Of a stretch of DNA of 64,000 bases, positions 29,221 through 30,282 are shown piece by piece. Source of the DNA: Escherichia coli O157:H7 (GTDB lineage Bacteria > Pseudomonadota > Gammaproteobacteria > Enterobacterales > Enterobacteriaceae); assembly GCF_013167455.1 (NCBI RefSeq), contig NZ_CP038328.1; one strand, 5' to 3'. The notes beneath the pieces are model-generated. The model was given only the letters and a program-made list of their open reading frames with translations, searched no databases and had not been told where the DNA came from. Numbering within the stretch: the first letter of the stretch is position 1; the number at the start of each line of letters is the position of its first letter. A program made the translations under genes and the position numbers.

Positions 29221-30282
29221 ATGAAAACGATGCTGGCAGCTTATTTACCAGGAAATTCGACCGTCGATCTGCGGGAAGTTGCAGTGCCGACGCCGGGGAT
29301 TAACCAGGTACTGATCAAAATGAAATCCTCCGGAATTTGCGGAAGCGATGTCCACTATATCTACCACCAGCACCGCGCTACGGCGGCGGCATCCGATAAA
29401 CCGTTGTACTAGGGATTTATCAACGGTCATGAACCGTGCGGGCAGATTGTGGCGATGGGGCAAGGCTGCCGCCATTTTAAAGAGGGCGACCGCGTGCTGG
29501 TGTATCACATTTCTGGCTGTGGTTTTTGCCCGAACTGCCGTCGCGGTTTTCCTATTTCTTGTACTGGCGAAGGAAAAGCGGCTTACGGCTGGCAGCGTGA
29601 CGGCGGTCATGCCGAATACTTGCTGGCGGAAGAAAAAGATCTGATCCTCCTGCCGGATGCGCTGAGCTACGAAGATGGTGCGTTTATCAGTTGCGGCGTT
29701 GGCACGGCCTATGAAGGGATTTTGCGCGGCGAAGTTTCCGGCAGTGATAACGTGCTGGTGGTCGGTCTGGGGCCAGTCGGCATGATGGGGATGATGCTGG
29801 CGAAAGGTCGCGGTGCAAAACGGATTATCGGCGTTGATATGCTGCCGGAACGTCTGGCGATGGCAAAACAGTTAGGAGTGATGGATCACGGCTATTTAGC
29901 GACCACTGAAGGTCTGCCGCAGATAATCGCCGAACTCACTCACGGCGGCGCGGATGTTGCGCTTGATTGTTCCGGTAATGCCGCAGGTCGCTTACTGGCA
30001 CTGCAATCCACCGCTGACTGGGGGCGGGTGGTTTACATTGGTGAAACCGGAAAAGTGGAATTCGAGGTCAGCGCCGATCTGATGCACCATCAACGGCGGA
30101 TTATTGGCTCCTGGGTGACCAGTCTGTTCCATATGGAAAAATGCGCCCACGATTTGACTGACTGGAAGCTGTGGCCGCGTAACGCCATTACCCATCGCTT
30201 CTCGCTGGAACAGGCAGGTGATGCCTATGCGCTGATGGCGAGCGGCAAATGCGGGAAAGTTGTGATTAACTTCCCGGATTAA
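29221..30282 (+). pseudogene. yphC: Zinc-type alcohol/polyol dehydrogenase interrupted by an in-frame TAG at 29410-29412 (codon 64)
   Basis: Track ORFs 29188..29412 and 29449..30282 are in the same frame; reading through the TAG gives a 353-aa protein; TAG sits 4 codons before the catalytic GHE motif. Confidence 0.7.

Follow-up and report, generated by a model that had tools for sequence, protein, structure and literature searches.

The window, the whole 64-kb stretch of E. coli O157:H7 DNA that was analyzed, is collinear with positions 3361618-3425617 of the Sakai sequence (NC_002695.2), with 8 single-base differences (3 + 5) in about 63 kb, and so belongs to a closely related typical O157:H7 strain, not necessarily Sakai. 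Its genes are arranged in the order lepB-rnc-era...purL...glyA-yphH-yphGFEDCB-yphA-hca-...isc...pbpC. Within the yph cluster, the genes yphG, yphF, yphE, and yphD (22144..29155, + strand) encode an ABC sugar transporter and a DUF5107 protein, and the ORF list and annotation show their ORFs to be uninterrupted. They are followed by yphC (29221..30282, + strand, K-12-type start), a pseudogene of a zinc-dependent medium-chain dehydrogenase, assigned from its length match to K-12, Pfam domains, PDB homologs, and existing annotation. The ORF list and annotation place an intact aldose 1-epimerase gene, yphB (30294..31166, + strand), 11 nt downstream of yphC. The yphB gene is a possible target of transcriptional polarity from the yphC stop; a scan for promoters and terminators around yphC detected nothing relevant above shuffled expectation. 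Elsewhere in the window, the matches at the Rfam gathering threshold are all at expected K-12-type positions and none is unusual: rncO (876-1090, + strand), the ohsC antitoxin RNA of the shoB/ohsC locus between yfhL and acpS (4503-4579, - strand), GlmY (13777-13924, + strand), the iscRS stability element (43186-43295, + strand), and ryfA (50671-50975, - strand).

The yphC reading frame is interrupted by a premature amber codon, TAG, at 29410..29412 (+ strand), where window positions 29401-29418 read ccg ttg tac TAG gga ttt. The ORFs 29188..29412 and 29449..30282 share a common frame with the TAG between them, and 29221-30282 translates as 353 codons ahead of the natural stop, interrupted only at codon 64. 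Sequence and translation agree with the initial annotation, which had described two same-frame ORFs split only by the TAG at 29410-29412 and had expected a 63-residue fragment. Four codons, encoding GFIN, intervene between the TAG and the GHE motif (G69-H70-E71), and the amber codon is upstream of that motif, as had also been claimed. Comparison with intact alleles identifies CAG as the ancestral codon, i.e., Gln64>stop.

The start of yphC is inconsistently annotated: PGAP uses the ATG at 29188 (364 codons), whereas K-12/Sakai curation uses the ATG at 29221 (353 codons), and the stop is consequently codon 75 by PGAP numbering and codon 64 by K-12 numbering. When PGAP coordinates are compared with K-12, the 1095-nt PGAP model contains an alternative 11-codon N-terminal extension (29188..29220, + strand). 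Shine-Dalgarno duplex energies are similar at the two starts (-5.8 and -5.9 kcal/mol), and a GAGGG sequence is found 5-9 nt upstream of 29221. The K-12 yphC gene (b2545) is also 1062 nt in length.

Public annotation already records the lesion. In RefSeq, the Sakai gene ECs_3411 is labeled "pseudogene" and EDL933_RS18185 is labeled "internal stop"; both correspond to the feature in the window, with identity over the full length (1062 or 1095 nt, depending on the start) and the same TAG codon. The yphC gene is the only annotated pseudogene in Sakai's counterpart of the analyzed stretch. A literature search on the O157:H7 yphC pseudogene found no paper discussing it, and most papers mentioning "YphC" refer to an unrelated B. 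subtilis GTPase.

The interrupted dehydrogenase

When Gln64 is restored, the YphC protein contains the Pfam domains ADH_N at residues 28-146 (E=2e-24) and ADH_zinc_N at residues 185-312 (E=1e-25). It aligns over its full length with the solved structures 4cpd, 7y9p, and 5kia (E=1e-36 to 1e-35), and its full-length homologs include solved alcohol, xylitol, L-threonine, and sorbitol dehydrogenases of the zinc-dependent type (E about 1e-36 to 1e-29). The Pfam and PDB alignments are therefore in agreement with the earlier proposal that reading through the TAG restores a zinc-dependent dehydrogenase of 353 amino acids. The GICGSD and GHE motifs are both kept in the PDB alignments. The first supplies a catalytic-zinc ligand, Cys40, whose codon (29338..29340, + strand) is upstream of the stop; the second is the Gly69-His70-Glu71 catalytic-zinc motif (29425..29433, + strand), which sequence and alignments place between the stop and the restart ORF. 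All four structural-zinc cysteines (Cys100/103/106/114) are encoded, and the GxGxxG NAD-binding motif is present as G182-L-G-P-V-G187.

The stop falls within the ADH_N catalytic domain, after Cys40 and ahead of His70/Glu71. Translation would yield 63 residues (74 with the PGAP start) and would not reach His70/Glu71 or any part of the NAD-binding domain. Because the stop precedes these zinc ligands and the NAD-binding domain, no active dehydrogenase would be made, and a functional yphC product is very unlikely. The premature stop is a genuine and ordinary gene-killing mutation. Judged by its interrupted frame, the O157:H7 yphC is a pseudogene of the zinc-dependent MDR family and not a functional member of it.

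Distribution of the stop allele in E. coli

To survey the allele, the diagnostic base was placed at position 28 of 55-mer probes, which forces every 28-base megablast seed to include it. The T-version for position 29410 matched 294 genomes in a set of 5,426 complete E. coli genomes; for 290 the match was exact. With the C-version, at least 3,269 genomes were found to have CAG at codon 64, a count to be read with the sensitivity of the CAG probe, which varies with local polymorphism, reachable genomes being only about 61%. The 1062 nt of yphC are 100% identical in Sakai, EDL933, EC4115, and TW14359, and in at least 40 complete O157:H7 genomes, Sakai and EDL933 included. Two of the 294 T-carriers are in the 95-99% identity band, with 1-2 mismatches to the O157 55-mer; these may be O157:H7 strains in which a SNP is close by, or may represent a third background of independent origin.

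Among the complete genomes, the C-probe detected CAG in the exact O157 background only in strains PV15-279, 493/89, F3113, and LSU61. PV15-279 is a beta-glucuronidase-positive O157:H7 strain (PMC6256406), LSU-61 is a clade 9 "intermediate" (PMC7175801), pSFO157, the plasmid found in sorbitol-fermenting O157:NM strains, is present in 493/89 (PMC7175801), and the pO157 of F3113 groups with that of PV15-279 (PMC10758439). The O55:H7 strains CB9615, RM12579, DEC5A/B, and USDA5905 also have CAG, with one further difference. An older substitution identified by allele comparison at 29392 (+ strand; CCC>TCC, Pro58>Ser) is present in all O157, including the strains with intact yphC, and is absent from O55:H7.

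Only two bases separate the yphC of the window from the four intact O157 alleles: C>T at 29410, which turns Gln64 into an amber codon, and C>G at 29789, which gives Ala190>Gly. This confirms the single C-to-T change in a CAG codon that the initial annotation had put forward. Reference alleles with an intact frame begin upstream of the TAG, contrary to a refuting condition named in that annotation. The second substitution on the stop's branch, at 29789 (+ strand; GCG>GGG), is three residues past the GxGxxG motif, and residue 190 is Ala in both PDB alignments shown. When TAG64 and the ancestral C at 29789 were combined in a hybrid probe, none of the complete genomes matched it exactly. The Ala190>Gly change could represent drift after inactivation, or an earlier hit that impaired function.

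Since the early-branching O157 strains and O55:H7 keep CAG, the stop arose on the branch leading to typical O157:H7, after the early splits, and has been clonally inherited since then. The allele is common to essentially all typical O157:H7, i.e., the beta-glucuronidase-negative, non-sorbitol-fermenting strains.

Dcm-site context and recurrence

Position 29410 is the inner cytosine of a former Dcm site (29409..29413, + strand) that reads CTAGG in the window and CCAGG in the intact alleles. The ancestral taCCAGGga has become taCTAGGga, a C>T change at the second C of CCWGG. This C is the one that Dcm methylates (PMC3527292), and in E. coli CCWGG sites are hotspots for C>T mutation at the methylated base (PMC13250602, PMC3527292). 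The dcm-vsr locus is present in 5,358 of 5,426 genomes; dcm and vsr are annotated as intact in the TAG-carrying O157 strain 2017C-4109, and the locus was also matched in LSU61.

Because 29410 corresponds to the methylated inner C of CCAGG, deamination of 5-methylcytosine is the likely cause of the stop. In the proposed sequence of events, Dcm would methylate the inner C of CCAGG at codon 64, spontaneous deamination of the 5-methylcytosine would produce thymine directly, and the resulting T:G mismatch would escape Vsr very-short-patch repair. The conversion of CAG to TAG would then have been fixed in the ancestor of typical O157:H7.

There are four CCWGG sites in yphC, and deamination at three of them, at codons 29, 64, and 298, would generate an amber codon. 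The codon 64 C>T change is also found in TUM2330 and strain 144, whose yphC has 42 differences from that of the window, and which differ from each other at 1 of 3,055 nt. A SNP lies just 5 bases 5' of the T in these two strains, and the divergence, this SNP included, points to a separate origin of the change and not to transfer of the allele; for all events, independence was assessed by divergence of the yphC region, not by whole-genome phylogeny. At the codon 29 CCAGG site (window position 29305), CAG>TAG occurs in NCTC10444 and in an unrelated lineage of six genomes that includes KFu024. The NCTC10444 yphC is the O55:H7 CB9615 allele with the codon 29 amber and no other change, so the O55/O157 clonal group has lost yphC in two independent events, each at a Dcm site. 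For codon 298 (CCTGG, Trp298), the probe found no natural amber allele among the complete genomes, and a TAG64 probe in the K-12 background found no further carriers.

A control query addressed the complete set of 18 non-Dcm sites at which a transition makes a stop codon, in the O157 as well as the K-12 background, with the probes joined by mismatching two-base spacers. Codon 29 was the positive control of this multi-probe query, and its 7 genomes reproduced the single-probe count. Six verified single events were detected at the 18 non-Dcm sites (Q50, Q75, Q81, W124, Q217, and W315). The matches to 873.10 and GMF065 were rejected as flank-polymorphism artifacts, yphC being intact in both. There are four events at three Dcm sites vs six events at 18 non-Dcm sites (binomial P=0.043), and with so few events overall the P value rises to 0.08-0.13 if some non-Dcm lineages hide extra events. 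Sites hit twice comprise two of the three Dcm sites and none of the 18 non-Dcm sites (Fisher P=0.014). This sample is small and the statistics are marginal, and within those bounds the comparison supports a Dcm-hotspot origin of the yphC stop.

Alternatively, the C>T change could be an ordinary replication error or the deamination of an unmethylated cytosine, in which case its position within a Dcm site would be coincidental. We consider such a coincidence possible but doubtful, because each of the two in-frame CCAGG sites mutated twice, in unrelated backgrounds, and none of the 18 control sites did, because the mutated base is exactly the cytosine that Dcm methylates, and because dcm is present and intact in the lineage. 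What keeps coincidence in contention is the existence of six natural nonsense alleles at non-Dcm sites, the third amber-prone Dcm site (Trp298) that was never hit, the marginal statistics, and the small share of all G:C>A:T transitions that CCWGG sites explain (PMC13250602).

Across the whole window, CTAGG occurs three times and CCTAG is absent; one of the three CTAGG sequences is the yphC lesion. CCWGG occurs 171 times, compared with 144 expected by base composition. The scarcity of CTAGG and CCTAG fits the known depletion of CTAG words that is attributed to Vsr repair.

Persistence of the loss and comparison with known systems

Other natural nonsense alleles of yphC are found at Q50 (16 genomes), Q75, Q81, W124 (2 genomes), Q217, W315, and C40, and all of them, at eight loci, are flagged as "internal stop" by PGAP. 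The C40 allele, in STEC435, is a transversion (Cys40 TGC>TGA) and is not the stop that was probed for. In total there are at least 11 independent yphC nonsense alleles, in about 324 of 5,426 genomes (6%), a tally that leaves out frameshifts, deletions, and most transversions. This number of independent alleles shows that yphC is often dispensable in E. coli.

The reading that we favor, with a probability of about 85%, is that the yphC TAG is a genuine, fixed loss-of-function allele that marks typical O157:H7, that it likely arose by 5-methylcytosine deamination, and that it persists through dispensability, since yphC is dispensable in many E. coli lineages. Under this reading the loss would be neutral. 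Positive selection for yphC loss during the emergence of typical O157:H7, as opposed to drift or hitch-hiking, might be proposed from the 11 or more independent nonsense alleles among 5,426 genomes, from the two knock-outs within the O55/O157 clonal group, and from the position of the stop on the same branch of the stepwise model as the loss of beta-glucuronidase activity (PMC6256406, PMC7175801). We regard adaptive loss as unlikely. The recurrence is concentrated at mutational hotspots, which favors mutation pressure combined with weak purifying selection, about 94% of genomes are without any probed nonsense allele, and in a clone as young as O157:H7 neutral mutations fix by descent. No phenotype is known for the loss; a literature search on yphC function found no hint beyond the weak data of a gap-filling study in which a K-12 strain lacking yphC grew less well on myo-inositol (PMC3423039). 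A broader version of adaptive loss, in which yphC inactivation is a recurrent, selected loss with Dcm hotspots supplying the knock-outs, forms part of the beta-glucuronidase/sorbitol remodeling, and possibly silences yphB by polarity, is slightly less probable again.

Dispensability also bears on whether yphC could still be functional, either by amber suppression or read-through to full length, or through a useful 277-aa product reinitiated at the GTG at 29449. The downstream in-frame ORF (29449..30282, + strand; GTG start, from the ORF list and duplex energies) has a poor Shine-Dalgarno sequence, with an energy of -3.6 kcal/mol compared with -8.7 kcal/mol for yphB. The product would be missing Cys40, His70, and Glu71, consistent with the earlier description of a 277-aa restart product without the catalytic zinc site, and a functional restart was rejected as unlikely on both counts. 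The remaining yphC frame is intact, only one further substitution has accumulated, and the flanking operon genes are intact, all of which might be taken as signs of retained function; however, few later mutations are expected in so young a clone as O157:H7. The codon 64 stop is not conserved, TAG being limited, apart from the two T-carriers in the 95-99% identity band, to typical O157:H7 and one unrelated lineage, and the CAG of the orthologs argues against a conserved recoding site. There are no tRNA genes in the window, a literature search returned nothing on an amber suppressor in O157, and the unrelated nonsense alleles in many lineages point to dispensability, not recoding. Retained function is therefore highly improbable. 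A sequencing or assembly error concealing a sense codon at 29410-29412 can be dismissed, because the identical T recurs in the assemblies of 290 complete genomes, sequenced separately by many laboratories and on many platforms, and because the lesion is carried in the curated Sakai and gapless EDL933 annotations; the other refuting condition of the initial annotation, a sense codon on resequencing, likewise fails.

As a lesion already known through public annotation, the yphC stop is no new kind of biology, and, being RefSeq-flagged in a gene whose function is not established, it matters little for biology at large. What is added here is the place of the stop on the stepwise phylogeny from O55:H7 to O157:H7, the Ala190Gly change that accompanies it, its Dcm-hotspot setting and independent recurrence, and the frequent loss of yphC across E. 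coli. In the set of complete genomes surveyed, the pair 29410 C>T and 29789 C>G cleanly distinguishes typical O157:H7 from its beta-glucuronidase-positive, sorbitol-fermenting, and O55:H7 relatives. The frequent dispensability of the dehydrogenase step of the yph cluster is relevant to assigning the cluster's substrate.

The intact K-12 YphC (b2545) resembles the gene in the window in length, operon position (yphG-F-E-D-C-B), and domain architecture, and in both cases Cys40/His70/Glu71, the four structural-zinc cysteines, and GxGxxG are all encoded. Unlike the window, K-12 has CAG at codon 64, Pro58, and Ala190, with 31 nt differences overall, and whereas the K-12 protein can be made, the O157:H7 protein would be truncated at residue 63. 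The stepwise losses of beta-glucuronidase and sorbitol fermentation on the path from O55:H7 to O157:H7 likewise involve a point mutation that kills a carbohydrate-metabolism gene (PMC6256406, PMC7175801, PMC3375798), and they too separate typical O157:H7 from its beta-glucuronidase-positive, sorbitol-fermenting, and O55:H7 relatives. In contrast to those marker losses, the yphC stop is without a known phenotype and is not in diagnostic use.

The yphC stop is a natural instance of the textbook CCAGG>CTAGG amber hotspot, in which methylation biases which genes get knocked out. The classic case is reportedly that of the CCAGG amber hotspots of lacI described by Coulondre and Miller in 1978. At the lacI hotspots, as in yphC, CCAGG becomes CTAGG at the inner C and CAG becomes TAG; in yphC, independent lineages show the change at one and the same base, and dcm and vsr are present. 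The two cases differ in that the lacI hotspots come from a laboratory screen, whereas the yphC mutations are found in natural populations, where enrichment at Dcm sites is marginally significant and one of the alleles has become fixed in a pathogen clone.
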